A stretch of 22,505 nucleotides of DNA from a virus (IMGVR_UViG_2681813269_000007), one strand, 5' to 3'. Positions 1,934 through 20,659 are shown, counted from the stretch's first letter. Notes: generated from the letters alone by a model not told the origin. Made by a program: numbers and translations.

Positions 1934-2899
1934 TTAATTATCAGTAGATTGTTCCTCTAGTAACAACTCAATTCTGCTTAGTATTTCTTTAGATATTTTG
2001 CGGCTATCAATTTTTATAGTTACAAAATTACCTTTATATCTAGCCGTGATCCCTTCCCCATATTTTTTCTCGTCTTTTGTTTTTTCCTCGTCGCCAACCA
2101 GAACAGAGTCAGATAATATTTGTATAATCCGTGAAGCTTCTAAATCCTCGCCGTTTTTTTTAATTGCCAGAAGATGATGAGCAGCATTGCTCATGGCAGC
2201 CATGTTTTTTTTGTAAACCTTAAACAAAGAATCTCCAGCACGAGCTGACAGTTCTCCTGGATGATTGAAGATAGCTAATATATCTTTTGGTAGACCAGCT
2301 GTATTAATACAGCGAGTGATAATATTTCTATCTATATTTTCAGCCTCGGCTAATGCTTTAACGTTACCATCAAAGTCATTTAGCTTGCGTAAGTATCTCT
2401 TTCCTCTTTCGTATGCACTAATAGGCCTATAATCGTTACCAATTTGGGATAACCAATGCATCTGTTCATCGTCGAGATCACCAATTAAGACGCGATAGTC
2501 ACATCCTGTTAATATCGCTGCTTTTCTTCTACGTGAGCCGTCAGCGACTTCAACGATTCCAGATACTTTTCTGGCGAAAGCTGGATTTTGTTGTCCAGAC
2601 GTTAGAAAAGATGGGATTAAATCGGCTAGAGAGGATTCATTTAATAAATCTTGATCGCGTTCATTACCTAGCCATACCATTGTTGCCATTTCAACTTTAT
2701 CTGCGGGAATTGTCTCTAACTTAAAGTTAACATTACGTCCGCATACTGGCAAAGTTATGCTGTTACCGGTTAATGAACTCAGTTGACGTTTTAAATCACC
2801 AACCATAGGTGATACGGGCTGATGTTCAGGGGCATGATGATTATTACTCATAATGCGATTAATATCTGGAGCATTTTTTAGAAGAGAGCGCTGTTTCAT
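1934..2899 (-). CDS. sopB: Partition protein SopB (ParB family, centromere-binding)
   Basis: 321-aa ORF colinear with F-plasmid SopB as I recall it (ITLPVCGR, WxGNERDQ, DLIPSF, PAFxRxVSG, IADGSRRRKAA, DYRVLxGxLDDEQM, GNDYRPxSAYERG, CINTAxLPK, HPGELSAR). Start overlaps the sopA stop. Confidence 0.9.
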   Translation of the reverse strand: MKQRSLLKNAPDINRIMSNNHHAPEHQPVSPMVGDLKRQLSSLTGNSITLPVCGRNVNFKLETIPADKVEMATMVWLGNERDQDLLNESSLADLIPSFLTSGQQNPAFARKVSGIVEVADGSRRRKAAILTGCDYRVLIGDLDDEQMHWLSQIGNDYRPISAYERGKRYLRKLNDFDGNVKALAEAENIDRNIITRCINTAGLPKDILAIFNHPGELSARAGDSLFKVYKKNMAAMSNAAHHLLAIKKNGEDLEASRIIQILSDSVLVGDEEKTKDEKKYGEGITARYKGNFVTIKIDSRKISKEILSRIELLLEEQSTDN

Positions 2900-4065
2900 T
2901 ATTCGTTCTCCCAGCGAGGTTTTATTAGATCATCAAAAATTTCTCGGCAAACAGGGTCCCATATAGAAACAGCATTTCTCCATGCATTCAATGTTGAACG
3001 TTGGTTTGCTGCTTGTTCAAATACTGTTCTCATTTTTATCTGGCCTTTACCTACTTCATCGGTAACGCGTACAACCTGACGTAATACCATTGATCCCCAT
3101 GTATTTCTTATTTGTTCTTCCATCCATCGTGATTGATTCCCTGTAGTGAGACTATATTTAGTCAGAAGTAAGCGAACGGTTGGCTCAAATCCACCTAGGT
3201 CAACGCTTTCCAATAGATCGAGAAGCATTGTGAAAAACTGTAGAACAGAAGCGTAATCAAATAATTCTGCAGGTGTAGCAACAACAATAACGTCAGCGGC
3301 ACAAACAACGTTAATGGTTCCTGTACCGAGGTTCGGAGCACTATCTATAACGATAACATCGTAGTTATCCCAAACTGATTCAATAGCTGCGCGCAGCATA
3401 AGGTGTGGAGGATGAGGCAATTTACCCTGAGCATGATATTGCATGAGATCTGTTTCTATACGATGTAAAGCTAGGCAGCTAGGGATAATGTCTAGCCCAG
3501 GCCAACATGTTGGCTTTATAGCATATTCAGCGTTATCGCGTTCTCCTAAGTAAAATGGCAGTAAAGTATCCTCGGCATGGATATGTAAATCAGGAACATA
3601 ACCGTGATACATAGAGGCCGTGCCTTGAGGATCGTTACCTTCAACCAAAAGAACACGATGACCTTGTAATGCTAACCATTGAGCTTGATGTACCGCAGAC
3701 GATGTTTTATAAACGCCGCCTTTGTGTGACATAACGGCAAGCGCAACAGGGTTTTTATCTTGTGGTCGTTGGTTTGGGTTGCCAAAAACTGCTCGCATAC
3801 TGTTGATTTGATCTATGGTATAACCAGCACGACGTTCAATTCTTCCTCTCATTTCAAAGTCAGGTGCAGGTAAACGCCCGCTCTTCTCAGCATCTCTAAT
3901 TGCTTGAGGAGTTACACCAATTAAATCTGCTACTTCAGTTATACCCCATCGGCGGGTGATACGCCGAGCTTCAGGACTATCATCACCGAATTGAGCGATA
4001 GCAATTGCTTTGGTCATTTCTTGACCTCTCGTAACACAATCTTGCAATAACTTTTTCAAAGACAT
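2899..4065 (-). CDS. sopA: Partition ATPase SopA (ParA family, type Ia with N-terminal HTH extension)
   Basis: 388-aa ORF with GGAGATGA RBS. Deviant Walker A KGGVYKTS, a long N-terminal extension, and the same length as F SopA. Transcribed divergently from telN. Confidence 0.9.
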   Translation of the reverse strand: MSLKKLLQDCVTRGQEMTKAIAIAQFGDDSPEARRITRRWGITEVADLIGVTPQAIRDAEKSGRLPAPDFEMRGRIERRAGYTIDQINSMRAVFGNPNQRPQDKNPVALAVMSHKGGVYKTSSAVHQAQWLALQGHRVLLVEGNDPQGTASMYHGYVPDLHIHAEDTLLPFYLGERDNAEYAIKPTCWPGLDIIPSCLALHRIETDLMQYHAQGKLPHPPHLMLRAAIESVWDNYDVIVIDSAPNLGTGTINVVCAADVIVVATPAELFDYASVLQFFTMLLDLLESVDLGGFEPTVRLLLTKYSLTTGNQSRWMEEQIRNTWGSMVLRQVVRVTDEVGKGQIKMRTVFEQAANQRSTLNAWRNAVSIWDPVCREIFDDLIKPRWENE

Positions 4066-4712: not shown

Positions 4713-6626
4713 ATGAGCAAAGTAAAAATCGGTGAATTAATAAACTCACTTGTTAGCGATGTTGAGTCAATAGATAACTCTGACCGTCCTCAAGGGGAGA
4801 AAACAAAAAAAATAAAGGCTGTTGCATTAAAATTTAAAAATGCATTATTTAATGACAAGCGAAAGTTTAGGGGGAAAGGATTAGAAAAAAGAATTACAGC
4901 CAACACATTCAATGCCTATATGAGCAGGGCCAGAAAACGGTTTGATGATAAACTTCATCATAGCTTTGAAAAAAATATACATCGCCTATCTGAAAAGTAT
5001 CCTTTATATAATGAGGAGCTATTGTCATGGCTTTCTCTACCTGCTGCCGATATTCGCCAGAGAATGTCAGCTTTACAGGCAAAATTAAAATTAATTCTCC
5101 CTCTATCAGAAGATTTATCTAATATCAGAATTGGCGATAACAAAAGTCATAATAAGTTATTGAAATTATCAAATAAATATAAAGAGTGGCAATTCGCCAT
5201 TTCTGATTTAACTAGCGATAACTGGAAAGATAAGCGCGATTATTTATATAAATTACTACAGCAAGGATCTGCCTTACTTGAGGAGTTGAATCAGCTAAAA
5301 GTTAACCATGAGATTCTCTATCATCTTCAACTAAGCCCTGCCGAACGTGCATCTATCCAGCAACGATGGGCGGACGTTCTGCACAATAAGAAACGTAACG
5401 TGGTGGTCATTGATTACCCTAAATATATGCAAGCTATTTACGATATTATAAATAGCCCTGCTACATTAAATAATCTAAACACTCGTTCAGGTATGGCTCC
5501 TTTGGCATTTGCACTTGCTGCATTGTCAGGAAGACGAATGATTGAGATTATGTATCAAGGTACATTTACTGTTTCTGGTAAGTATACCGTTGATTTTTTA
5601 GGCCAAGCTAAAAAAAGAACTTCTGATGATATAACCAGAAAAATATATACATTATGCGAAGCAAAAACATTTGTTTATTTAATAAATGTACTTCGCTCAT
5701 GCCCAGCAGCATCTGATTTTGATGATGTCGTTAAAGGTTATGGAGATAACGATACACGCTCTGAAAACGGACGTATTAATGCCATATTAGCAAAGGCTTT
5801 TAACCCGTGGGTTAAATCATTTTTCAAAGATGACCGCCGTGTTTATAAAGATAGTCGTGCTATTTATGCCCGTATTGCGTATGAAATGTTTTTCCGCGTA
5901 GATCCTCGTTGGAAAAACGTAGATGAAGATGTTTTCTTTATGGAAATTTTAGGCCATGACGATGAAAACACTCAATTACACTATAAGCAATTCAAGCTGG
6001 CCAACTTCTCAAAGACATGGAGGCCAAATACTGGAAACGAAAATACCAGGCTGGAAGCATTGCAGCAGCTTGATGACGAAATGCCTGGATTCGCCAGAGG
6101 AGATGCCGGGGTTCGTCTGCATAACACAGTTAAGCAGCTGGTAGAGCAGGACCCCTCTATAAAAATCACGAACAGCACTCTAAGAGCGTTCAAATTTAGC
6201 CCAACAATGATTAGTCGATACCTGGAATTTGCTGCTGATGCTCTGGGGCAATTTGTTGGCGAAAACGGACAATGGCAACTGAAAATAGATACTCCAGAAA
6301 TCGTTATGCCTGACGAAGAAGAACTGGAAGCAATACCTGAACTGGCGGATGAATTATCAGAGGATGACGATCTGGATGACGACGAAATTGAGATAGAGGA
6401 AGAGGAAGAGGAAGAGGAAGAGGAAGAGGAAGAGAGCGTAGAAGAACAGCAACCGCCTGCACCTTCTTCGCCTGTATCTAAGCCGGTATTTAAGCCGGTG
6501 AGAAATATTGGTGATGGCTCATACGTTGTTGAGTTTCATTATAATGGCCAGAATTATGCGTGGTCCGGCAGTGCAAACAGCCCCATGTCAGCAATGCAGT
6601 TAGCATGGCTGACATATTTCGGTTAA
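4713..6626 (+). CDS. telN: Protelomerase TelN (telomere resolvase, tyrosine-recombinase-like)
   Basis: 637-aa ORF with AGGAGAGG RBS. The N-terminus MSKVKIGELIN... and overall colinearity match N15 TelN (about 630 aa) as I recall it. An acidic C-terminal tract precedes the conserved tail. Confidence 0.92.
   Translation: MSKVKIGELINSLVSDVESIDNSDRPQGEKTKKIKAVALKFKNALFNDKRKFRGKGLEKRITANTFNAYMSRARKRFDDKLHHSFEKNIHRLSEKYPLYNEELLSWLSLPAADIRQRMSALQAKLKLILPLSEDLSNIRIGDNKSHNKLLKLSNKYKEWQFAISDLTSDNWKDKRDYLYKLLQQGSALLEELNQLKVNHEILYHLQLSPAERASIQQRWADVLHNKKRNVVVIDYPKYMQAIYDIINSPATLNNLNTRSGMAPLAFALAALSGRRMIEIMYQGTFTVSGKYTVDFLGQAKKRTSDDITRKIYTLCEAKTFVYLINVLRSCPAASDFDDVVKGYGDNDTRSENGRINAILAKAFNPWVKSFFKDDRRVYKDSRAIYARIAYEMFFRVDPRWKNVDEDVFFMEILGHDDENTQLHYKQFKLANFSKTWRPNTGNENTRLEALQQLDDEMPGFARGDAGVRLHNTVKQLVEQDPSIKITNSTLRAFKFSPTMISRYLEFAADALGQFVGENGQWQLKIDTPEIVMPDEEELEAIPELADELSEDDDLDDDEIEIEEEEEEEEEEEEESVEEQQPPAPSSPVSKPVFKPVRNIGDGSYVVEFHYNGQNYAWSGSANSPMSAMQLAWLTYFG
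6396..6431 (+). repeat. Perfect (GAGGAA)x6 in-frame hexanucleotide tandem repeat inside telN
   Basis: Six exact tandem GAGGAA units encode the poly-Glu run in the TelN C-terminal acidic linker. Confidence 0.9.
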
Positions 6627-7810: not shown

Positions 7811-8137
7811 GCAGCCACCTCGCGCACCGGAATACGGGCAGACAATACCAGGACAAACCGGCTGGCGAACTGGCGACGAGCTTCCCGTTCAGATGACGCG
7901 ATAGTGGAAAGATGATGAATGTGGGACTTTTTGTCTGTGCGAACGACTGCCGCAAATTTGAATTTGAACATGGTATGCACTCCGTTTTATTGGTCGTGCT
8001 ACCTCCAGAGTTGCGAATCTCTTTATTGGTGGTAGCCCAGGCGGGGTTCGCAATACCGGTAAACGAAGAAACCGGCCCGACCGAAGTCAGCCCCACCTGA
8101 GCCACCATAATTCGGATATGCGCAGGTCTATACACAT

Positions 8138-8213
8138 AAAAAAACACGCTGGCGCGTGTTGTGCGCTTCGTTTTGCCAGGATTGCGAAGTCCCGACTGCG
8201 GGATTTACCGCAG
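8138..8213 (-). ncRNA. Candidate small regulatory RNA (c4/cA-like) upstream of the antirepressor operon
   Basis: On the minus strand: -35 TTGACG (8250-8245), -10 TAAAGT (8226-8221), then about 75 nt ending in an intrinsic terminator (ACACGC-GCCA-GCGTGT plus U7, 8159-8138). The predicted RNA has a 5' hairpin CUGCGG-UAAAUC-CCGCAG. No convincing ORF in the region. Confidence 0.3.
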
Positions 8214-8263
8214 CGAGGTGACTTTACCTCCAAAACGACGCACACGTCAATAATTTGCAAAGA

Positions 8264-10166: not shown

Positions 10167-13100
10167 TTACCCATAGAAAGCGCCCTGCTCTTCGTAGCTG
10201 CATGGGCTATTCCCGGTAATGTATTCACGTAACCGCCGCAGTTCATTGCTGGATAAGTGATCCATGAACTCTGTGAGGTACAGAGATGCAAACGTCATAG
10301 CTATGCTGGCTGATGACCATGATGACATAGTGGCCAGCTCCTCACCGGAAAGCGCACTCATCGCCCAGGACTCAGGTACAACCACTGGCAACACAGCCAA
10401 AGCCTCAGAAATTACTGAATGAGGGGCGTTTTGAACCTGCTCGTTTGTGGATCGCGTTTTATCATCCATATATATATTGAGATCCAAATCGCGATCCATT
10501 TCGATGGCGGTCTTCTCGGCTTTACGCGTTTTCAGGGTTAGGCCATCTTTCTGACGCTGAGCAAGAATATCCAGCATAAATGCCGCTGATTCAGGCTCAA
10601 CAAAACGCAAGGTTGGACGCTTATCGCCGTCTCTGCCGCGACGTTTACCTGTTTTAAGGCCAAGAGAGTCGCAAATGTTTTTAAACAACGCTTCCGGCAC
10701 TTTAGGCTTCCCTTTTGGCGTCATAAAACCACCAATGTGCAGAACGTTATTCAACAGGTCACGGCGTTCGGCTGTCATGAGGTTATCTCGAGCAAATTTG
10801 AGACGCTCCTGAGTCGCCTCGCCGGTCATAGTCTCAGGGTTGATACCGCAGTCGATAAAGTACTGCCGGAGAGTTGCTGATTTAAGCGCATAGAAACCGC
10901 GCGCCCCGACTTCAACAGTAGGAGTAGCTTTTACCTTGTGATCGATTATTCCAGGGAATTTAGTTTTAAAGACATCATCAGCCTGCTCGCGAGTCATCGC
11001 GGTCACTACAAAATATTGCCACTGTCCCGCCTGACGGTATGCGTAGGTAAAATTGATGGCTGCTTCTTCCCGGTCGTAACGACGAGCTGTTACCTCATCT
11101 AAAAGCATTGTTTCATAGCGGCGAACTTTGTCTCGAGCACCATCGAAATAGAATTTCAGCGTGCCTTCTTCAACCGGTAGTTTCAGTTCGTTTTCAATAT
11201 CCCAGCGGACAAGTTTTGCCTGTTCTTCAAGCGTCAGCGCGCGTTTTTTTAGCAGTTCTTCACGCTCTGATTCTTGTGGAGTTTCTGTATTGAGATGCAG
11301 ATCCAGTGTCTGTTCCCACACAATATCCCGCGCTTCTTTACGCAGCTCTTTACCGATATCATTCGCAGCATAATCGGTGGCCAGCGGCGATACCTTATAA
11401 CCGTCGCTGTGCATGATGCAGATCATGTTGCTGGCGTAGTCGTTACGCGCAGTCGCTTCAATAGCGGCTGCTTTAATTTTCATCCTGGTAAAGTCGGTAT
11501 TGGCCACCCCCATTGATATACGGTCGCCATCGAAAACGACATCCGTCAGTTCACCGTTCATACCTGCGGTAGCAAGCAATGCCTGGGCGAATGCTCGTTC
11601 TATTTTTTGCGGGTCAGTTTCACGTTTTGCACGAGCTTTATCAAAGCCGATAATAAATTCTTTTGCTGTACGGTCGCGGCGTAGCATTTGCACTGCGTCG
11701 CTGGGTACAACTTCACCACAGAACATGCCGAAATGACGGTCAAAATGTTTTTGCTCAATCGACACGCCGGATGAAATAGACGGGCTATAAATCAGGCCGT
11801 CGTATTTTTTGACCATCTTTTTCGGTTGATTGGTAAATGCTTCAACTTCTGGCTCTGGTTTGTTTTTCTGGTTTACACACAGAAATTTCTTACCAGGAAA
11901 ATGCATTCTCAGGGTGGCTGTCACATCTTCTGCAAAGGTGGAGCTGTCGGTGGCCAACATGATTTTTTCGCCATCCGATACAGCTTTCACCACCTCGGTC
12001 ATGATGCGATCTTTTTCTGTATAAAAAACCCGGATTGGCTCACCTGTTTCGCGGTTGCGAACATCAACAGGTAATTCAATTACGTGGATCTGCAGCCATG
12101 CCGGTAAACCTAGTTCTTCACGGCGTTTCATAGCCAGTTCAGCCAGGTCAACCAGCAGATCGTTCGCATCAGCATCCACCATGATTGGGTGTTGTTCCGT
12201 TCTGGCCAGCGCGTCAATTAGCGTATTGAATACAGCCACCGGGTTTTCCATAGCCCGACCGGAAAGAACGGCACGTAGCCCTTGTGTGGCCTCGTCAAAG
12301 CCAAAATAGTCGTGCTGGCGCATCAACGGTTGCCAGCAGTTTTTAACAATCGAGTTTATGCAGATGGTCAGTTTACTGGCGTATGGAGCCATTTCCTGAT
12401 AGCCAGGGTCCTGATAGTGCAGGATATCGGCTTTTACACCTTTTCCTTCTGTCATCATTTCCCACAGGCCACCAATAAGGGAGACACGGTGAGCAACAGA
12501 GATACCACGTTCTGAGCTATGCATTAATGGTCGTAACAATCCTGTAGATTTGCCGGAACCCATACCAGCACGGACGATGACTATCCCTTGTAGTGATTGC
12601 ACGTACTTCAGGACATCATCGGTCATTACCGAAGTTTCAAAACGCTTATAGGTGATATGTTGAGGGCGTTTATTGGGATCAGTTATGCGTTCGCTGAAAG
12701 AGCGCGGAGCCTGGGCAATACGGCACTTTTTATTCAGGCGACGGGCAATGTGGTCTTTTACCGTAGCGCGATAGATATTTTCCAGTCCCATTTCACGCAG
12801 AACGATGCAGAACATGTTAAATAAATCTGACGGACTGTTAGGAACCGGACAGGTTAGCATGCCTATATCCACCGCTCTCAGCAGCTCTTTGGCAAAAGTA
12901 CGACGGTTATCCCGCTTAATTGTCTTCAGGCGGTTGAGCGTCAGAGATAGCAAATCAGTACCGGTTTTCAGGCGGTTTGCTGTTGTAAATAGTTGACGTG
13001 CGGTTTCACGAAGTCCACGTAGTTTGTGCAGGTCGTTGAAGTCACTGCACTCCATTTGCGGATCGTCTTCAAAAGTTGGATAGACGCAGCGGACATCGTT

Positions 13101-14162
13101 GAATTTCGATAAGATTTCATAGCCAGTCCGCAGGCCGGTATTCCCTTTTCCTTCTGTGGCAGATTTCCGGTCATTATCCAGTGCGCAGGTGATTTTTGCC
13201 GCCGGGTACATGTTTACCAGTTGTTCCACAACATGAACCATGTTGTTAGCGGATACAGCGACAACCACAGCGTCAAAGCGTTTATATTTTTTCGTGGCAA
13301 GCCAGATGGATGCACCAGTAGCAAAACCTTCTGTAACAGCGATGTTTTGCGCCCCTTTCAGCTCACCGATAACAAAGCAGGCACCGACGAAATCGCCGCT
13401 GGTTACTGCGCTGGTCTGGTATTTCCCACCTTGTTTGTCGATTCGCTGCCAACCCACAATACGACCATCGTAACGACCGTCCAGGTGAGCCAGAGGGATA
13501 GCCATATATGTGGTTGGCCCCCGGCTCCATTTCGCACTGTCGTGACTGGTCACGCGACGCACATCACATGAACTAAAAACGTCACGAATACCTTTTTTAA
13601 TCGCATATGGCCATGAGCCGTCTTCAGCCGGAGCATGTTCCCACGCGCTGTGGAATGCCAGCCATCCCAGCAAACGTTCATGGTCCATTTGGTTGTTTTT
13701 CAGGTCATTAATTCGTTTTTGTTCTTCACGGCGACGACGTGCTTCGGCCTGACGTTCTATTCTTTCCCGTTCTTCTTCCGGTTGTGCGACCACGGTCGCA
13801 TTATTCCGTTGTTGCTCACGGCGATATTCAGAAAACAGGAAGGAGAAACCGCTCCATGAGCCAGCATCGCTGCCTTTATGGACGAAGTTAATGAACGGGT
13901 AATCAATCCCTTTGCTGTGTTCCAGCCGGGAGTAAATTTCTACGCGTCCTTTCAGGCTCTTTTCGAGAGCTTCTGGAGATGTTTTATTGTATGAAGAGTA
14001 ACGCTCAACTCCCCCGCGAGGGTTGAGTTGGATGTTGTCGGAACAGGCAGGCCAGTTGATACCAGCCATCTGTGCCAGCTCGGTTAGTTCATCCCGTGCT
14101 GCTTCAATTAGCGAGAACGGATCGCTGCCAAAGCGATCCGCATAGAAATCGTTTAATGTCAT
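10167..14162 (-). CDS. repA: Replication protein RepA (multidomain primase-helicase)
   Basis: 1331-aa ORF, close to the roughly 1324 aa I recall for N15 RepA. Walker A GMGSGKST in the central helicase region. Same orientation and position relative to cB as in N15. Confidence 0.92.
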   Translation of the reverse strand: MTLNDFYADRFGSDPFSLIEAARDELTELAQMAGINWPACSDNIQLNPRGGVERYSSYNKTSPEALEKSLKGRVEIYSRLEHSKGIDYPFINFVHKGSDAGSWSGFSFLFSEYRREQQRNNATVVAQPEEERERIERQAEARRRREEQKRINDLKNNQMDHERLLGWLAFHSAWEHAPAEDGSWPYAIKKGIRDVFSSCDVRRVTSHDSAKWSRGPTTYMAIPLAHLDGRYDGRIVGWQRIDKQGGKYQTSAVTSGDFVGACFVIGELKGAQNIAVTEGFATGASIWLATKKYKRFDAVVVAVSANNMVHVVEQLVNMYPAAKITCALDNDRKSATEGKGNTGLRTGYEILSKFNDVRCVYPTFEDDPQMECSDFNDLHKLRGLRETARQLFTTANRLKTGTDLLSLTLNRLKTIKRDNRRTFAKELLRAVDIGMLTCPVPNSPSDLFNMFCIVLREMGLENIYRATVKDHIARRLNKKCRIAQAPRSFSERITDPNKRPQHITYKRFETSVMTDDVLKYVQSLQGIVIVRAGMGSGKSTGLLRPLMHSSERGISVAHRVSLIGGLWEMMTEGKGVKADILHYQDPGYQEMAPYASKLTICINSIVKNCWQPLMRQHDYFGFDEATQGLRAVLSGRAMENPVAVFNTLIDALARTEQHPIMVDADANDLLVDLAELAMKRREELGLPAWLQIHVIELPVDVRNRETGEPIRVFYTEKDRIMTEVVKAVSDGEKIMLATDSSTFAEDVTATLRMHFPGKKFLCVNQKNKPEPEVEAFTNQPKKMVKKYDGLIYSPSISSGVSIEQKHFDRHFGMFCGEVVPSDAVQMLRRDRTAKEFIIGFDKARAKRETDPQKIERAFAQALLATAGMNGELTDVVFDGDRISMGVANTDFTRMKIKAAAIEATARNDYASNMICIMHSDGYKVSPLATDYAANDIGKELRKEARDIVWEQTLDLHLNTETPQESEREELLKKRALTLEEQAKLVRWDIENELKLPVEEGTLKFYFDGARDKVRRYETMLLDEVTARRYDREEAAINFTYAYRQAGQWQYFVVTAMTREQADDVFKTKFPGIIDHKVKATPTVEVGARGFYALKSATLRQYFIDCGINPETMTGEATQERLKFARDNLMTAERRDLLNNVLHIGGFMTPKGKPKVPEALFKNICDSLGLKTGKRRGRDGDKRPTLRFVEPESAAFMLDILAQRQKDGLTLKTRKAEKTAIEMDRDLDLNIYMDDKTRSTNEQVQNAPHSVISEALAVLPVVVPESWAMSALSGEELATMSSWSSASIAMTFASLYLTEFMDHLSSNELRRLREYITGNSPCSYEEQGAFYG
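13783..13802. other. sopC-like centromere palindrome, copy 1 (inside repA coding sequence)
   Basis: TGTGCGACC-AC-GGTCGCATT. Positions 13785-13800 (TGCGACC-AC-GGTCGCA) are a perfect 7+2+7 inverted repeat with the same GACC-AC-GGTC core as the F sopC SopB-binding site. Confidence 0.6.
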
Positions 14163-14284: not shown

Positions 14285-14313
14285 ACCCGAGTTTGCCGAC
14301 TCGGGTTTTTTTT
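14285..14313 (+). terminator. Intrinsic terminator on the strand antisense to the repA leader
   Basis: ACCCGAGT-ttgccg-ACTCGGGT followed by T8, on the plus strand 123-151 bp upstream of the repA start codon. A possible -35 TTGAAA lies at about 14200 on the plus strand. Confidence 0.5.
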
Positions 14314-14407
14314 CGTCTTTTTTCTGCTGCTGTAACCTGAGTCAACCCACAGAACATATGCCCTGCATTAAACCAGATTTACAGCAAACAATAAACCCCG
14401 TATTAAG

Positions 14408-15004
14408 TCATCTACCCTCAACCATGAATGATTTGATCGTTCCGACTATTTGGTGAACAAATTCAAGATCGCTTTTCCTGAAGATGGCTCGTTGTGAGTT
14501 TGTTCCATCCAGATAGTAATTTTCATCATCAAAACGGGCCAGGCGCTGGATAGTGATATTTCCTGCAGTATCACGAACCAGAACATCCTCGCCGGGGACC
14601 AGTTCCAGCGCAGAATCGACCAGGAGAAAATCGCCTGGCTGATAGTTTCCCTGCGTAAGATTGCTGATAGTTAACGCATACACAGTATTGCGCTGGCTGA
14701 TGAATGGCAGGAATCGCTCAGTATTTGGAACCTGTCCCGGCTTCCATTCTTCATCAGGCCCACTTTCAGTTGTGCCAATAATAGGAATGCGATCAGGGTC
14801 ATATTCTGTCCCATATAGCACCCAATGCACTGGCTTGCGTAAGCACTTAGCCAGGGCAATACCTATCTCCAGTGACGGCATTACGTCGCCACGTTCTAAG
14901 TTTTGGACGCCTGCTATAGAGATATCGACAGCCTCAGCAACTTCTCGCAACGTCAGCTTCATCTCTAAACGGCGTGCTTTCAGTCGTTCGCCTCGTGTTT
15001 TCAT
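14408..15004 (-). CDS. cB: Prophage repressor CB (CI-like, N-terminal HTH, C-terminal S24-like domain)
   Basis: 198-aa ORF with an XRE-type HTH (LTLREVAEAVDISIAGVQNLERG) and a LexA/CI-like C-terminal fold (GDFLLVD ... ITIQRL). Divergent from cro across an operator region. Confidence 0.85.
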   Translation of the reverse strand: MKTRGERLKARRLEMKLTLREVAEAVDISIAGVQNLERGDVMPSLEIGIALAKCLRKPVHWVLYGTEYDPDRIPIIGTTESGPDEEWKPGQVPNTERFLPFISQRNTVYALTISNLTQGNYQPGDFLLVDSALELVPGEDVLVRDTAGNITIQRLARFDDENYYLDGTNSQRAIFRKSDLEFVHQIVGTIKSFMVEGR

Positions 15005-15026
15005 ACTGTAATCATAAATGATCTTC

Positions 15027-15068
15027 TTATAGCTGGCTATAAAATTTATTTATTATAGCTGGCTTTAA
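15027..15068. promoter_or_regulatory. Paired operators in the cB-cro intergenic region
   Basis: TTATAGC-TG-GCTATAA (15027-15042) and TTATAGC-TG-GCTTTAA (15053-15068) are 26 bp centre to centre, followed by TATAAT at 15084-15089. Confidence 0.6.
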
Positions 15069-15095
15069 TTGTTATTTATTGTTTATAATAACAAC

Positions 15096-15317
15096 ATGAA
15101 ACCAGAAGAACTTATTCGCCACTTTGGCAGTGTTGAAAAAGCAGCGGCAGGGGTAGGTGTAACACCCGGAGCTGTTTACCAATGGTTAACCGCTGGAGAG
15201 ATTCCTTCATTGCGGCAAAGCGATATTGAAGTTCGTACTGCTTACAAGCTGAAGAGTGACTTTACAACTCGGCGGGTAAAGCAGTCGATTAAGGAGAGTC
15301 GTAAGCGTGGAGCTTGA
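15096..15317 (+). CDS. cro: Cro-like repressor
   Basis: 73 aa from ATG 15096 (MKPEELIRHFGSVEKAAAGVGVTPGAVYQWL..., an HTH). The ORF track extends to a TTG at 15069 that lies inside the operator, so the shorter start is preferred. Confidence 0.7.
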   Translation: MKPEELIRHFGSVEKAAAGVGVTPGAVYQWLTAGEIPSLRQSDIEVRTAYKLKSDFTTRRVKQSIKESRKRGA

Positions 15318-16017
15318 GTATATACGCAGCTGCGTCTCTACGGCATTGGCTGATGTTCATTATCGCCAGCGTGGCATTCTGGAGGTCCAGCTTGAGCAGA
15401 TGCGTCTCGGTAGATCAGGACGGTTTAACAATAAACCAGTCCGGTCAATCAGTGTGGGGGATGATAACTCATACGAAGTGTCCGTTCCCGCTGAGCCGGT
15501 TAGATTCCACCAAGGGAAAACATTTAAACAATCATCAATATTGCTCACTGATATTGATTTTCAGAGCGCCAGCTGGCGCAGGGCTATTGGTCAGTTGAAT
15601 AACGAGGAATCAGCCTGGCTTTATTATTGCTACGGATGCAAGCCTGACTACAACAATGATGTGATTGTTTGTCAGTGGTTATGGCTTGATTTTCTGGTTG
15701 CTCATTCTGGGGGCGGCTTTAAAAAAATGAAGGCCTCCACGAAAAAAGCCATGCGGAAATTGATTTATTACGCGGCACAGCAGGTTAAATCAGAACTTAC
15801 GTGTGCTGAGGCAGTTGATGAGAGAGAACAGGACAGGCATCTGAGTTTTCTACTGAATATATCTATTGATAGCTGGAGACAAGATTATAAAGAACGCTGG
15901 CTTTTAATTAAGTCGCGATGTCTGAGCTTAAATCGAACCGCATTATTAAATGCGGCGGAGAAGCGCAGTGAAATCATCAAACGCCATCGGGCAGGAAGTG
16001 CCATTCTGCCTTTGTAA
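15307..16017 (+). CDS. Hypothetical protein in the position of a Q-like late antiterminator
   Basis: 236-aa ORF with GTG start and AAGGAG RBS, overlapping the cro 3' end. Function inferred from gene order only. Confidence 0.35.
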   Translation: MELEYIRSCVSTALADVHYRQRGILEVQLEQMRLGRSGRFNNKPVRSISVGDDNSYEVSVPAEPVRFHQGKTFKQSSILLTDIDFQSASWRRAIGQLNNEESAWLYYCYGCKPDYNNDVIVCQWLWLDFLVAHSGGGFKKMKASTKKAMRKLIYYAAQQVKSELTCAEAVDEREQDRHLSFLLNISIDSWRQDYKERWLLIKSRCLSLNRTALLNAAEKRSEIIKRHRAGSAILPL

Positions 16018-16022
16018 ACAAG

Positions 16023-16270
16023 TTATGTTCAGGAAACCGTCGAAGCCAGAATTAAGGTATTCGGGGGTAAGAAATGAATATGTTATCTGGTGTCCAACTT
16101 GTGGTTACAGGACACGACCAGATAGTAATAAGCAGTCTGTAATTGCCGATTGGTATTTATCAAATCAGCCAGGTAATAAGCATATAGAAAATCTTTGGAT
16201 TAAGCGTTACTTGGAAATCAGCGAGGGTGCGACCACGGTCGCACAAGAAAATGAAAATAACGCCATTTAA
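16023..16270 (+). CDS. Small zinc-ribbon protein (possible Lar-type restriction-alleviation protein)
   Basis: 82 aa from ATG 16023 with a CPTCG motif in YVIWCPTCGYRTRPD. No clear RBS; the start is uncertain and the ORF track offers an alternative at 15950. Confidence 0.35.
16227..16244. other. sopC-like centromere palindrome, copy 2
   Basis: GTGCGACC-AC-GGTCGCAC, a perfect 8+2+8 inverted repeat at the junction of two small ORFs. Confidence 0.6.
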
Positions 16271-16454
16271 GCAGGGGCCGATGACGCATGATGAAGCAGA
16301 GCGTCTTTCAGATACTTATCGGCGGCGTGGTAAGAAAGTTCTGGTTGTTCGTTCTGATTTTTTAGGTGATGGATATTGCGTTTATGTTCATTTACCTGAA
16401 TCAGAAAGAACGCCAAAACCATCCAGAACATATCAACAGAAAATTTGGGTATAG
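16251..16454 (+). CDS. Hypothetical small protein (start uncertain)
   Basis: ORF open from 16227; the first ATG is at 16251. No strong RBS. Kept for continuity of the early-gene block. Confidence 0.3.
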   Translation: MKITPFKQGPMTHDEAERLSDTYRRRGKKVLVVRSDFLGDGYCVYVHLPESERTPKPSRTYQQKIWV

Positions 16455-16477
16455 ATAAACGTTGAGGAGAATTATTC

Positions 16478-17077
16478 GTGACTAATCAGATTATTTACGA
16501 CAGGAAACGGTCTGATGTAATGATTGACCTTGAAACAATGGGTACTAACACATGTGCTCCAATTGTTTCTATCGGGGCAGTGTTTTTTTCTCCAGAAAGT
16601 GAGGAATTAGGTCCTACTTTTTATGTGCCAGTGAATCTCAGAAGCTCGATGTTGAATGGTGGTGTCGCCGATGGTGATACCATTTTATGGTGGTTGAAAC
16701 AGAGCAAGGAAGCCAGAGCCGCAATTTGTACTAATGATGCCCTTGATATTAAGGATGCACTTTTTGAATTATCACACTTTATTACTTGCCATGCATGTAA
16801 TTTAAAAAAATTGAAAGTATGGGGAAATGGAGCAACATTCGACAATGTAATTTTACGCGGTGCTTATGAGCGCGTTGGCTTAGCCTGTCCGTGGGAATAT
16901 TTTAATGATCAGGATGTTCGAACAATCGTTAATCTTGGTCAGTTTATTGGTTTCAATTCTAAAAAAGATATGCCATTTGATGGCGAACGACACAATGCCC
17001 TAGCTGATGCTATTCATCAGGCTAAGTATGTATCCGCAATTTTCTCCCGTCTCATAAAAGGGAAAGGAGAATCGTAA
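16478..17077 (+). CDS. DEDDh-family 3'-5' exonuclease (DnaQ / RNase T-like)
   Basis: 199-aa ORF with GTG start and GAGGAGA RBS. Exo motifs MIDLET (D-x-E), WGNGATFD, and HNALADA (H-x4-D). Confidence 0.8.
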   Translation: MTNQIIYDRKRSDVMIDLETMGTNTCAPIVSIGAVFFSPESEELGPTFYVPVNLRSSMLNGGVADGDTILWWLKQSKEARAAICTNDALDIKDALFELSHFITCHACNLKKLKVWGNGATFDNVILRGAYERVGLACPWEYFNDQDVRTIVNLGQFIGFNSKKDMPFDGERHNALADAIHQAKYVSAIFSRLIKGKGES

Positions 17078-17496
17078 TGGCAAAAGTTTTTACACCAGAA
17101 CAGCGTGAAGAACTGAAGAAACAAATTGTGGAACTCGTGCGTCTGAATGGGCGAGGAACGGTTAGGCAACTGGCAGATGAAATTAGTATTAGCCGATGTG
17201 CTGTTAATCGTTTATCCAGAGAGCTTGCCACCAGTGGTGATTTGTATATCTCTGGCTCCGGGATATTTCTGTCTGCACAAGCGCGCAAGGACTGGCAAAA
17301 CGCCCGCAAAAAGCTATCAAGAGTAAAGTCGAAGAAATCGGTAGTTGTTGATCCTGACCTTATCTGGTCATTACCTGATGGAGAAATACGTCGTTACGAC
17401 AGGCGCTTGAACATGATTTGTCACGATTGTCGGAAGAGCGAAGTTATGCAGCGTGTGTTGGCGTTTTATCAGGGAAATTTTCAGGAGGTGGCGTAG
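17077..17496 (+). CDS. Hypothetical protein with probable winged-HTH segment
   Basis: 139-aa ORF with GGAGA RBS; ATG overlaps the exonuclease stop. VRQLADEISISRCAVNRLSRELA is HTH-like. Confidence 0.6.
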   Translation: MAKVFTPEQREELKKQIVELVRLNGRGTVRQLADEISISRCAVNRLSRELATSGDLYISGSGIFLSAQARKDWQNARKKLSRVKSKKSVVVDPDLIWSLPDGEIRRYDRRLNMICHDCRKSEVMQRVLAFYQGNFQEVA

Positions 17497-17786
17497 TGAA
17501 TATCGACACCACGATAACGATCGATACGGCCCTAAATACCGGTCTGGCACTTCTCGGTTGGTTTTACATCATGTTCAGTTCGTGGAAGTGGGCGGCCTCT
17601 GTTTTTCTAAAGCAGTGGGGAAAGCGCCGCAAACAGGAAAAACGCCAGAAAGCGTTGGAGGCGTTCTATGACGCATTTGAACTTAGCCGCATTGAGCCAG
17701 GCACAACAGCCAAGATAGCGACAAAAGGCGACCTGATGATAGTGATGTTCCGACAGGAGAGAGCAGAGAAAGGTGAATCAGCATGA
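17497..17786 (+). CDS. Small membrane protein (GTG start)
   Basis: AGGAGG 7 nt upstream of GTG 17497. One hydrophobic helix (ALNTGLALLGWFYIMFSSW). The ORF track's longer form would overlap the upstream gene by about 80 nt. Confidence 0.4.
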
Positions 17787-18457
17787 AATTTTCTAAATTT
17801 TCTGAGTTGGTGAATCGTATTTTGTTGAATCGTATTTTGTCCAACAACCACAGGCATCGTCGCGATATGGATGTAACAATCGTTGTTCATTCGCCTGGCA
17901 GCATTGGTTCAACACCTTCAGTTGAGGTTCAGTCAATTCACGCTGGTTTTGATTGGGATTCCGGGAAAGTGCTTATTTTCCCAGCACAGCCACTGACCAC
18001 GCTAACACCAGAACAGATTACTGATATTACTGATAGTGTGCGCAAAGGTCAGTCTTGGCACGCATATCAGGAATATAAAAAGCATAAAGAGCAGTTGGAA
18101 AAATTGTCGATTGAGTTGGAATCAGCCAAAAATCATATAGCAGAACTGGAAGCCAAACCTGTAAGCCAAACTTACAAGTTAACTTTTGAGCAATGGCTGG
18201 AACAGCAGCATGACAAAATTGATGTTGATTGTGGATGTGTAAGTACAGAAATGCTTATGCACTGGATAAGGGTCGCGTATGAGGCTGGCAACTCTCCGGT
18301 AACTCCGGATGGTCATATTCAGTTTTCTGTTTCACTTCCTGCAGCATGTGGTGGAGATAAATATTTTATTGATGGTGTATTTCAACCTTTGAGATATGAG
18401 CGTGACTGTGAAAAAGCGGTTGTGGCCGCTGGCGGTGTAGTTAATTGGGTTAAGTAA
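17783..18457 (+). CDS. Hypothetical protein
   Basis: 224-aa ORF, ATG overlapping the upstream stop, with a GGTGA RBS. No recognisable motif. Confidence 0.6.
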   Translation: MKFSKFSELVNRILLNRILSNNHRHRRDMDVTIVVHSPGSIGSTPSVEVQSIHAGFDWDSGKVLIFPAQPLTTLTPEQITDITDSVRKGQSWHAYQEYKKHKEQLEKLSIELESAKNHIAELEAKPVSQTYKLTFEQWLEQQHDKIDVDCGCVSTEMLMHWIRVAYEAGNSPVTPDGHIQFSVSLPAACGGDKYFIDGVFQPLRYERDCEKAVVAAGGVVNWVK

Positions 18458-18472
18458 TTTTCAGGAGGATTT

Positions 18473-18799
18473 ATGGCGCTGACAGCTGCAGAACGGCAAA
18501 GGAGACGCAGGGAACGGTTGAAGAAGGAAGGCACATCAAGACGGGACTGGATTCTGGAACCTGACGAGCTACGTATGTTGGGGGAAATTTGTGTATTGCG
18601 TAGACCGGGACGAGTTCCATATTCAGAGAATGAAGTCATCGGTCTGCTGATCAGGAAAAACTATAAGGAGCTGCAGAAGCAGCTATCTACTACTTGCTCG
18701 CGATGTGGTCAGAAAATGCCTGTTTCAGAATGTATTTTTGATGGTGAAGGCTCATGTCACCTTACAACTACGAGGCTGAAACTTGTGCTCAAAGTGTGA
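18473..18799 (+). CDS. Hypothetical basic protein with Cys cluster
   Basis: 108-aa ORF with AGGAGG RBS. Arg-rich N-terminus (ERQRRRRERLKKEG) and a CSRCG...C...C motif. Confidence 0.6.
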   Translation: MALTAAERQRRRRERLKKEGTSRRDWILEPDELRMLGEICVLRRPGRVPYSENEVIGLLIRKNYKELQKQLSTTCSRCGQKMPVSECIFDGEGSCHLTTTRLKLVLKV

Positions 18800-18998
18800 C
18801 TGGTCACGGAATGATAAATAAACAAAAAGGCATAGTTTTTGAAATGATGAGAAAACGAAGCGAAAAGAGTTTTTCTTATGGTGATGATGGGCTTCTGTAG
18901 GTGGTTGAGTGAGGCGTAGGAAGAGAACATAAGTATCGGACTACAAAGCTATTAACCCTGTTAATCCATTGAAAGTTGGCTATAAAATTTGAGTTTTA

Positions 18999-19018
18999 CC
19001 CTGTAATTTTATACAGTA
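18999..19018. promoter_or_regulatory. LexA (SOS) box
   Basis: CCCTGTAATTTTATACAGTA is a canonical CTGT-N8-ACAG with AT-rich spacer, 23 bp upstream of the ATG at 19041. It is the only such match I found in the window. Confidence 0.6.
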
Positions 19019-19040
19019 TCAAATAACCTTTTTTAATTAA

Positions 19041-19259
19041 ATGGTATTAGATTCAATGACTGAAGCATCTGTATCAACTCTTGAAGAACTCGGATCAAAC
19101 CTAAAAGACATCGACGCCGTTTTGGATCTGGTTAGCGTTGCTCTGGCTTCTCCCGAAGCTAGCTTGCATCTTGGCGAGATTTCACGGCTTGTTAGTATGT
19201 CGCGGGAGATTGCTCAGAATTGCCAACAAGCGATTGCTGTGGAGTGTTTACATCATTGA
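19041..19259 (+). CDS. Small acidic protein under the LexA box (candidate SOS-inducible antirepressor)
   Basis: 72-aa ORF, acidic and predicted helical, immediately downstream of the LexA box and convergent with the toxin-antitoxin pair. Confidence 0.55.
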   Translation: MVLDSMTEASVSTLEELGSNLKDIDAVLDLVSVALASPEASLHLGEISRLVSMSREIAQNCQQAIAVECLHH

Positions 19260-19302
19260 TACACACCCCGCCCTTCTGGACGGGGTAGTGAAAAGTGATT
19301 AA

Positions 19303-19590
19303 TCAATAGACGGCATTAATATTAATTGTTGCGCCACATGCTTGGGCATATTTTGATAAAGTTTTCATGCTTGCCCCTAAAGGATTGCTTTCCAGGCGGC
19401 TGATGGCGGACGGGCGCAATCCCATTCGTTCTGCCAGAGCTGACTTCGTTAAACCTGCTCTTTCCCTCATTTCGTATAACATTTCGACCATCTCCAGTTC
19501 TTTATCGGCCTCTTCATATCCTTTGATAGCTTCTGGAGTGTTGAGTAGTTTTTCCTTTACTTCGTTAAACGGGATGCCTTTTGCTTTCAT
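19303..19590 (-). CDS. HTH (XRE-family) antitoxin, HigA-like
   Basis: 95-aa ORF with HTH LTKSALAERMGLRPSAISRLES. Start codon overlaps the toxin stop (ATGA). Confidence 0.8.
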   Translation of the reverse strand: MKAKGIPFNEVKEKLLNTPEAIKGYEEADKELEMVEMLYEMRERAGLTKSALAERMGLRPSAISRLESNPLGASMKTLSKYAQACGATININAVY

Positions 19591-19901
19591 CAGTTCATCT
19601 CCTTCAGGCGAGTTCTGGCGATTTCTATAGCCTTTACTGGTGTTTTCTGTGTCTTTTTTACAAATGCATGCAATAGATAAATTTCGTTACCAGTCGCGTA
19701 GGCGTATAGCGTTCTTGCGATGTTTTTATCCCCTACTCTTAGTTCAAAGAGTCCTCCGCCTATTACACGGCTATGGGGCATCTTAAGTTTGTTTCCCTCT
19801 TTCTCCAGTCGTTCAATTAGCCTGGTCATGCGACCTCGCAGATCGTCTGGTAGTTCAAGCAGTTCATCCAGTGCTGCAGGGTGGGTTATCACGTTAAACA
19901 T
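19590..19901 (-). CDS. RelE/ParE-superfamily toxin (HigB / Gp49-like)
   Basis: 103 aa from ATG 19901, chosen over the ORF-track start at 19946 because AGGAGG lies 8 nt upstream. C-terminal ...LYAYATGNEIYLLHAFVKKTQKTP... matches the Gp49/HigB-type fold as I know it. Toxin-first order. Confidence 0.75.
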   Translation of the reverse strand: MFNVITHPAALDELLELPDDLRGRMTRLIERLEKEGNKLKMPHSRVIGGGLFELRVGDKNIARTLYAYATGNEIYLLHAFVKKTQKTPVKAIEIARTRLKEMN

Positions 19902-19959
19902 ATTATAGCCTCCTAATGCGCAAAATACACCAAAACGAGAAAACAAAGCAAATATAAAA

Positions 19960-20530: not shown

Positions 20531-20552
20531 CTGTGCGACCACGGTCGCACAG
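20531..20552. other. sopC-like centromere palindrome, copy 3 (longest perfect copy)
   Basis: CTGTGCGACC-AC-GGTCGCACAG, a perfect 10+2+10 inverted repeat starting 4 nt after the stop of the preceding gene. Confidence 0.65.
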
Positions 20553-20635
20553 CACAAAAACGAAAAAGCTTGGCAAAATGACGGTTTTTAGTTATTGTTT
20601 TGTTAAGTTGGGTTTTTTGTACCCAACAGCCAACA

Positions 20636-20659
20636 AGCCGCCTTTATGGCGGTTTTTTT
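20636..20659 (+). terminator. Intrinsic terminator downstream of the small-gene block
   Basis: GCCGCC-tttat-GGCGG followed by T7. Confidence 0.5.

Follow-up and report, generated by a model that had tools for sequence, protein, structure and literature searches.

The five open reading frames (ORFs A to E) at positions 16478-18799 of the viral sequence IMGVR_UViG_2681813269_000007 probably make up the promoter-distal portion of the rightward early operon in an N15-like phage-plasmid, a portion that is mostly cargo and forms a mosaic of a conserved gene slot, exchangeable cargo and a core gene. The stretch of DNA that was analysed, referred to here as the window, was the whole sequence of 22,505 nucleotides. 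An earlier note, made from the sequence alone, had described the block as a DEDDh exonuclease gene followed by four tightly coupled genes with no nameable function, and had suggested that it might hide anti-defence or host-takeover functions. Each of the five products could be placed in a catalogued family: A in the PF16473 exonucleases, B in the DUF977/Ren-like proteins, C in DUF4752, D in the Ea22-like proteins and E in the N15 gp46 family. The description of the last four genes as unknown was therefore not upheld. The earlier note would have counted its suggestion as refuted if every product had turned out to be a replication or recombination accessory protein with a known role, which was not the case.

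On the basis of its gene content and its similarity to known phages, the window was identified as an N15-like telomere phage-plasmid of Escherichia coli. It encodes a protelomerase (4713-6626), SopA (2899-4065, minus strand), SopB (1934-2899, minus strand), a RepA-type replicase of 1331 amino acids (10167-14162, minus strand) and a CB-type repressor (14408-15004, minus strand), after which cro and Q follow on the plus strand. Positions 14300-19300 were 95-96% identical to the Escherichia phages YDC107_1 (genus Ravinvirus) and PhiR46_1, and the immunity part of this region was 74% identical to N15 (immB region) and phiKO2. The element is thus a temperate phage, as had been proposed. RefSeq plasmids with 99% identity to the window already carry annotations of all of the block genes; with these plasmids and the published related phages, the content of the block is already catalogued and includes no genes beyond known phage kinds.

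The five ORFs lie on the plus strand and fill positions 16478-18799 exactly. ORFs A and B overlap by one nucleotide at 17077 (TAATG, with AAGGAG upstream), as do B and C at 17496 (TAGTG, with AGGAGG upstream); C and D overlap by four nucleotides (ATGA, 17783-17786), and D and E are separated by a 15-nucleotide spacer that contains AGGAGG. A purine-rich Shine-Dalgarno sequence was present at every junction. These junctions, read directly from the sequence, confirmed the overlapping or near-overlapping start and stop codons that had been reported. There were two options for the start of ORF A, a GTG at 16478 with GAGGAG 8 nucleotides upstream, and an ATG at 16520, which is the choice of the RefSeq pipeline and gives a product of 185 amino acids. 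The most likely start of ORF C was the GTG at 17496 (96 amino acids), which matches the annotation of its relatives; a TTG at 17418 was less likely.

The same tight packing continues upstream of A, through Q (15307-16017, plus strand; PF06323, E = 1.8e-83; same position in N15 and phiKO2), a Lar-like ORF and an ORF of 75 amino acids (16227-16454, plus strand, likely start ATG 16251; phrog_1212, E = 1.7e-25), which are likewise overlapping or contiguous, so that the left edge of the block at 16478 is arbitrary. A homologue of the 75-amino acid ORF lies downstream of the Lar-like ORF in N15 and phiKO2, and the ratio of nonsynonymous to synonymous differences (pN/pS) of the ORF in the window was 0.10. 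Consensus scans of the window revealed no convincing internal promoter or terminator on the plus strand, the number of sites being equal to that in shuffled sequence, and no plus-strand terminator after Q; there is no space for one between Q and A. The layout expected of a single operon with cro-Q was therefore observed, namely a common strand, close cistrons and, by consensus scans only, no internal terminator or promoter. We infer that the block is the promoter-distal part of a repressor-controlled rightward early operon, cro-Q-Lar-like-orf75-A-B-C-D-E. The assignment of the block to the early genes was upheld by its place downstream of cro-Q. The proposal that the five genes form one operon held with respect to their common strand and tight junctions; the five are nevertheless no natural unit, since the operon extends upstream.

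The coding capacity of the ORFs was supported by family matches in Pfam (E = 9e-68 for A, 2e-28 for B and 1.2e-41 for C) and in PHROG (1e-32 to 1e-54). Comparison with phage YDC107_1 gave pN/pS values of 0.15 for B, 0.24 for D and 0.06 for E, and by this measure these three genes are under purifying selection; A and C had too few differences from YDC107_1 for such a judgement. NCBIfam and Rfam scans added nothing within 16478-18799.

The evidence that the block is composed of parts with different histories came from comparison with related elements. Gene order was common to N15, phiKO2 and the window and comprised Q, the Lar-like ORF (with the palindrome GTGCGACCACGGTCGCAC), the 75-amino acid ORF, a DEDDh exonuclease gene, variable genes, a gene for an Ea22-like modular protein, gp46, gp47, a toxin-antitoxin pair on the opposite strand, gp50, gp51, a second partition site and, finally, the late promoter and terminator. 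N15 genes 41-46 and phiKO2 gp39-gp45 correspond to the block in element type, in position and in orientation downstream of cro-Q; in both phages, as in the window, the exonuclease is encoded first, the Ea22-like protein next to last and the gp46 orthologue (78-81% identity) last. The occupants of these positions differ. The exonuclease of N15 and phiKO2 belongs to PF00929 (DnaQ-like), whereas the enzyme in the same slot of the window belongs to PF16473 (DexA-like), and N15 gp42-gp44 and the phiKO2 methyltransferase are replaced in the window by DUF977 and DUF4752. Neither N15 nor phiKO2 has a counterpart of ORF B, C or D.

Of 5426 complete E. coli genomes, only 17 carried the block intact, as did 26 PLSDB plasmids; fragments were present in 1422 genomes. 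ORF C and the N-terminal half of D were colinear, at approximately 90% nucleotide identity, with the early region of an O157:H7 prophage and with 'ea'-type gene arrays of P1-like plasmids; in O157 prophages and in such plasmids, DUF4752 adjoins Ea22-like, DUF551 and DUF1382 (orf63-like) genes. Synonymous divergence from YDC107_1 jumped from 0.02 in A and C to 0.2 in B and E, and the relatives of D exchange C-terminal domains at one fixed junction. The switches in divergence and the separate distributions of the pieces indicate a recombinational patchwork and not a co-inherited system; as judged from these comparisons, the block is a mosaic and not a dedicated five-gene system.

Two repeated sequences were also observed. 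In an O157:H7 prophage (locus L013, 5002-6652) and a P1-like plasmid (locus L014, 3469-5646), a recurring junction, ...TTCGCAAAGGA(A/G)GCA(G/A)CCAGTG, joins successive Ea22-like and DUF4752 genes; this TTCGCAAAGGA-containing junction may be a crossover point for the shuffling of modules in Ea22-like/DUF4752 arrays. Within the block, an exact 13-nucleotide direct repeat, AATTTTCAGGAGG, occurs on the plus strand at 17476-17488 and 18456-18468. The two copies form the Shine-Dalgarno regions in front of ORFs C and E, thereby flanking the C-D pair, and in plasmid pG749_3 the same two copies flank a different, longer insert. AATTTTCAGGAGG was rejected as a general cassette boundary, as it was confined to this plasmid lineage and a 13-mer in two copies may be due to chance.

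ORF A (16478-17077, plus strand) encodes a DEDDh 3'-5' exonuclease of family PF16473 (Rv2179c-like / T4 DexA). It matched the profile at 227.9 bits (E = 9e-68; gathering cutoff 27) over positions 2-176 of 177, and T4 DexA, which belongs to the same Pfam family, scored 79.9 bits. The catalytic residues D17, E19, D122, H172 and D177, which make up the DxE, D and Hx4D motifs, were invariant in our alignment A1 and aligned with D7, E9, D119, H186 and D191 of DexA, the list of DexA catalytic residues being taken from PMC12153337. This part of the earlier note was therefore substantiated. ORF A also matched PDB entries 8KEL/8KEN (phmmer E = 1.4e-7), which were deposited as 'Exodeoxyribonuclease' with a chain of 227 amino acids and which we took to be T4 DexA, since PMC12153337 cites 8KEL and 227 amino acids is the length of T4 dexA. 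At least 2588 homologues of ORF A were found, mostly of about 188-190 amino acids, from Enterobacterales and named '3'-5' exonuclease'. The 3'-5' exonucleases DexA and EcD, the latter a homologue from E. coli, act on DNA and are termed 'HREX' nucleases (PMC12153337). By homology, the product of ORF A is most likely a Mg-dependent DNA 3'-5' exonuclease that would trim or degrade DNA at free 3' ends. An orthologous relationship to the DnaQ/RNase T-type N15 gp41 was rejected: ORF A scored 14 bits against PF00929 (cutoff 24), and BLASTP against gp41 gave E = 0.35.

EcD guards E. coli against T4 even when expressed at a leaky level (PMC12153337). The block, or at least A and C, might by analogy be a prophage defence or superinfection-exclusion cassette that protects the lysogen, with A as an EcD-like ('HREX') nuclease acting on modified T-even DNA and C as a membrane exclusion factor. 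ORF A belongs to the Pfam family of EcD and has intact catalytic residues, and in a PADLOC scan for known defence systems it gave a weak match to a CRISPR-associated DEDDh domain (E = 0.0014); the match was sub-threshold, with no qualifying stretch, and the scan gave no other match for the block. Despite the common family and the retention of all five DEDDh residues, A is only about 28% identical to T4 DexA and several DexA loops are missing from it. The residues reported to recognise 5-hydroxymethylcytosine were not kept, DexA W152 being replaced by F142 and D169 falling in a variable column that holds F in the window, in a part of the alignment that is of low confidence. In addition, the tetramer-interface Asp whose loss defines the defence variant (DexA D90; Ala in EcD) was retained in A as D93. 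None of the listed homologues of A begins with MIDTET, and a scan of the genome collection with a 17-mer core of the EcD primer gave unrelated chance matches only.

The proposed partner of A in such a cassette, ORF C (17496-17786, plus strand), encodes a DUF4752 protein of 96 amino acids (PF15944, 141.1 bits, cutoff 27, E = 1.2e-41; phrog_667, E = 4e-43). The earlier note had called it a small membrane protein. A moderately hydrophobic N-terminal segment (residues 9-27), followed by a Lys/Arg-rich stretch, was indeed seen, but it was borderline, the best 19-residue Kyte-Doolittle mean being 1.26 at residues 9-27, below the usual value of approximately 1.6. This borderline hydrophobicity counts against a role for C in exclusion at the membrane, just as the location of the genes, in a repressor-controlled lytic operon between two partition sites, counts against a function in the lysogen. 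In lysogens of the Klebsiella telomere phage NAR688, proteomic analysis identified nine phage proteins. The region between Q and the toxin-antitoxin pair contributed none of them, and the toxin of that pair was among the few phage proteins detected (PMC12042878). The 'gp46' in the NAR688 lysogen proteome was considered as a homologue of E and rejected, as it follows that phage's own numbering and is the CB repressor. By synteny with NAR688, the block would be silent in the lysogen. An EcD-type lysogen-protecting cassette is unlikely, and we gave it a slight chance.

ORF B (17077-17496, plus strand) encodes a DUF977 protein ('LygF'), which matched PF06163 at 99.5 bits (cutoff 22.1, E = 2e-28), with residues 1-136 on profile positions 1-134, and phrog_142 (E = 2.6e-41). 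A winged-helix fold has been reported for DUF977 (PMC2686095), in agreement with the earlier identification of a winged helix-turn-helix protein. phrog_142, annotated 'Ren-like exclusion protein' in the host-takeover category, was also matched by lambda Ren (E = 1.6e-41), in both cases over nearly the whole profile. Pairwise similarity was much more restricted: in a BLASTP comparison of B with lambda Ren just 20 C-terminal residues aligned, at 50% identity, and lambda Ren gave no DUF977 match in Pfam. In lambdoid phages, relatives of B with 65-73% identity are found where ren is located, immediately after O/P-type replication genes. In contrast to this adjacency of lambdoid ren/DUF977 genes to replication genes, repA in the window is on the other strand, approximately 3 kb away from B. 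From its profile matches, ORF B would be a Ren-related winged-helix DNA-binding protein.

ORF D (17783-18457, plus strand) encodes a modular Ea22-like protein. It matched phrog_6026 (E = 2.6e-54) and, over residues 23-216, phrog_368 (E = 6.4e-42), a profile that lambda Ea22 also matches (E = 2e-29). The protein consists of an N-terminal domain (residues 1 to approximately 95), a coiled coil (approximately 92-124), a middle module and a short lineage-specific C-terminal tail. By piecewise tblastn, residues 1-123 recur in Klebsiella, rV5-like and Pseudomonas phages, and residues 109-194 have approximately 54% identity to Ea22/EaA proteins of Stx phages. The last 45 or so residues stand where close relatives carry DUF551, the switch occurring exactly after 'PVTPDG' (alignment A3). 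NCBI names close relatives of D after DUF551; PF04448 (DUF551) gave no Pfam match in ORF D or in its relatives at 90% identity or above. The identification of D as a true Ea22 or DUF551 protein was rejected, Pfam being blank for both, which leaves PHROG-level and piecewise relations. A 15-nucleotide tandem duplication at 17807-17836, inside ORF D (NRILL/NRILS), was absent from most homologues (219 compared to 224 amino acids).

Ea22 has been described as having three domains (PMC10834534), and its lambda and Stx members favour lysogeny (PMC7093339, PMC10834534). The exo-xis ('ea') region of lambda and Stx phages resembles the block in that it consists of non-essential early genes with heavy shuffling of modules, and phrog_368 links Ea22 to D; it differs in that D has neither Pfam Ead_Ea22 nor DUF551, and in that the ea genes lie in the leftward operon whereas the block genes lie in the rightward operon after Q.

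The region between Q and A contains two further features. The Lar-like zinc-ribbon ORF (15950-16270, plus strand) matched phrog_6795, 'Lar-like restriction alleviation' (E = 4e-45), and scored 21.2 bits against Pfam PF14354, below the 28.6 cutoff. It overlaps the 3' end of Q by 68 nucleotides, and its own 3' end encodes GTGCGACCACGGTCGCAC. Homologous Lar-like ORFs are present in N15 and phiKO2, and N15 gp41 is a PF00929 exonuclease fused to a Lar domain. The ORF was without annotation in the 99%-identical RefSeq plasmid and in phiKO2, and in an old N15 immB record it was merged with the next ORF as 'orf QD1'. The SopB-type partition-site palindrome GTGCGACCACGGTCGCAC itself is located at 16227-16244, 234 nucleotides upstream of ORF A, and a second exact copy is located downstream of the block at 20533-20550, just before a late-promoter-like site. 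It is identical to a phiKO2 sequence that carries the annotation 'putative plasmid partitioning site', and no copies are expected by chance. The two sites, at 16227 and 20533, flank the early accessory region, a layout that was the same in phiKO2 and N15. A third copy with one mismatch was found inside repA at 13784-13801.

These features bear on the anti-defence suggestion of the earlier note. In its full form, the block would be a coherent anti-defence or host-takeover operon whose products together disable the immunity of the host at an early stage of infection: A would degrade nucleic acids of the host or of its immune systems, Rex-type abortive infection would be countered by B, as it is by lambda Ren, and C, D and E would act on other systems. 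The early expression expected from a position downstream of cro-Q, the Lar-like restriction-alleviation ORF just upstream, the fusion of a Lar domain to the exonuclease in N15 and the match of B to a 'Ren-like exclusion protein' profile of the host-takeover category all fit such a role, as does the hypervariability of the region among relatives, which is common for counter-defence loci. On the other hand, no component matched a validated anti-defence protein beyond the profile-level similarity to Ren (20 residues pairwise), PADLOC was blank apart from the weak DEDDh-domain match of A, and there was no tested relative of C, D or E with such a role. The relative of D that has been characterised, Ea22, modulates the choice between lysis and lysogeny and is no immune antagonist, and the independent histories of the pieces and their separate occurrence in other phages argue against a single system. 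A coherent operon of this kind has a real but minor chance of being correct; anti-defence roles for parts of the region, such as the Ren-like B and the upstream Lar-like gene, are plausible.

ORF E (18473-18799, plus strand) encodes a basic protein of 108 amino acids that is orthologous to N15 gp46 and 78% identical to it along its entire length (phrog_536, E = 5e-32). Homologues were present in every N15-like phage examined and, at approximately 35% identity, in epsilon15-like phages, and the family is small, with 105 cluster representatives among 1.8 billion proteins. The protein has an Arg-rich N-terminal helix and four cysteines, C75, C78, C87 and C95, all of which were invariant among close N15-like relatives (alignment A2), consistent with its earlier description as a basic protein with a Cys cluster. 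In a wider alignment of 55 members (A4), C75 and C78 were invariant, C95 was conserved in at least 90% and C87 in less than 90%. ORF E probably binds zinc and is probably regulatory.

The best matches of the E family profile in the PDB were YbiI and TraR, at only E = 0.015-0.025. Membership of the TraR/DksA C4 zinc-finger family was rejected, PF01258 being blank for all 55 members and for the consensus, and hhalign against lambda Orf73 giving a probability of 19%. The cysteines of E are arranged as one CxxC and two single residues, compared to the CxxC...CxxC of TraR/DksA, and the DxxDxA motif and Arg-Arg pair through which TraR-like factors contact RNA polymerase (PMC9239242) were absent from alignment A4. 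A TraR/DksA-like regulator was thus rejected as a family assignment and is kept as a remote prospect.

E was also relevant to the proposal that the block genes assist the linear plasmid in replication or recombination, with A proofreading or processing ends during replication driven by RepA, B acting as a Ren-like replication cofactor and E regulating copy number. A DEDDh exonuclease does occupy this slot in N15, phiKO2 and the window, DUF977 genes do directly follow replication genes in lambdoid phages, and two of the 55 E-family members weakly matched the RepB replication-regulator family (PF10723, E = 0.028). However, the similarity of the E family to CopB/RepA2 was not significant, with an hhalign probability of 0.5% for A4 (the CopB sequence used was 100% identical to plasmid RepA2), and a CopB/RepB-like repressor was rejected. 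The exonucleases found in this slot come from different families, which leaves no conserved interaction with a specific partner, and both N15 and phiKO2 replicate well although they lack B, C and D. Furthermore, repA, telN and the telomere site suffice for replication of the N15 linear plasmid, which also counts against this proposal. Ren has been described as likely to be involved in DNA replication and as interacting with Rex proteins (bioRxiv 10.1101/2021.04.19.439022), and the first of these properties favours it. Overall, we assigned it a small chance.

We also regarded as improbable, though worth stating, that the Lar zinc ribbon and the DEDDh exonuclease form a conserved, functionally linked early module of telomere phages and that, separately, E is a divergent RNA-polymerase-binding zinc-finger regulator. 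The two domains are fused in N15 gp41 and are separate neighbours in the window, where the exonuclease is of a different family, and this repeated association in telomere phages suggests selection for the pairing. With its ends closed covalently into hairpins, the replicating phage genome offers no free 3' end and could thus tolerate an early exonuclease. Such an enzyme could attack host or competitor DNA, or restriction-generated ends, and spare the phage genome.

Returning to the reading of the block as the distal, largely cargo part of the early operon, we propose that in the plasmid-prophage state the operon would be silenced by the CB repressor at the cB/cro operators, and that SopB bound to the two flanking partition sites may strengthen this silencing. 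Upon induction or infection the operon would be read as one mRNA from the CB-controlled promoter before cro, and the overlapping stops and starts would pass ribosomes from cistron to cistron, giving coupled translation. The products would represent three components. The first would be the conserved exonuclease slot, filled here by a DexA-family enzyme and in N15 and phiKO2 by a DnaQ-type DEDDh enzyme; the second, exchangeable cargo comprising the Ren-like B and the DUF4752/Ea22-like C-D pair, drawn from the lambdoid/P1-like 'ea / exo-xis' pool; and the third, E, a core gene of telomere phages (gp46 family). All five genes are probably dispensable for plaque formation, their probable role being to adjust the balance between lysis and lysogeny and the competition with the host and with other phages.

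Several points weigh against this reading. PF16473 is named after an exoribonuclease, the DNA substrate of A is predicted from its relatives, and co-transcription of the block from PR is deduced from layout. SopB-mediated silencing from the N15 partition sites is something that we presume from earlier N15 work. ORF D had no match to PF13935 (Ead_Ea22) at E ≤ 0.1, compared to 100.9 bits for lambda Ea22 itself, and BLASTP between D and lambda Ea22 was not significant; more generally, the functions suggested for C, D and E are carried over from proteins that are either only weakly related to them or uncharacterised. The AlphaFold2 models of D and E, built from shallow alignments, were too poor to test anything, with a mean pLDDT of 50 for D, in which helix 92-124 was the sole confident part, and 56 for E. 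The per-ORF check of remote homology and structure that the earlier note had proposed thus yielded families for all five ORFs, but no usable models of D and E.

Several other features of the window lie outside the block. The toxin-antitoxin pair (19303-19946, minus strand) consists of a Gp49/RelE-ParE-type toxin and a helix-turn-helix antitoxin and points toward the end of the early operon, as do N15 genes 48 and 49. The gp47-like gene that follows gp46 encodes 80 amino acids in YDC107_1; in the window there was only a 29-codon remnant (18811-18900), and the interval up to the antitoxin gene (18800-19040) was approximately 86 nucleotides shorter than in YDC107_1. Consensus scans identified a promoter-like site at 20570-20598 (TTGGCA, 17 nucleotides, TATTGT), followed by a strong terminator-like hairpin at 20635-20655. 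These sites, at 20570-20655, match the position of the annotated late promoter and terminator in N15 and phiKO2, and Q presumably acts on the late-promoter-like site near 20570. Rfam gave matches that exceeded the gathering score for C4 antisense RNA (8025-8112, minus strand), the isrK Hfq-binding RNA (8139-8214, minus strand) and IS009 RNA (1669-1867); the C4 antisense and isrK matches suggest a P1/N15-type secondary immunity region for antirepressor control.

If the block is indeed the distal, mosaic part of the early operon, little changes: the window would be an ordinary member of the widespread N15-like phage-plasmids of E. coli. The early region after Q in these elements would be a fixed scaffold, consisting of the Lar-like ORF, the 75-amino acid ORF, the exonuclease slot, the Ea22-like slot and gp46, into which exchangeable cargo is placed. 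The PF16473 exonucleases, DUF977, DUF4752 and gp46-like proteins are gene families that are very common in enterobacterial prophages, and this small plasmid-phage, with its compact operon, would offer a convenient test bed for them. Just one lead may be worth following up at the bench, namely the repeated pairing in telomere phages of a Lar zinc ribbon and a DEDDh exonuclease.

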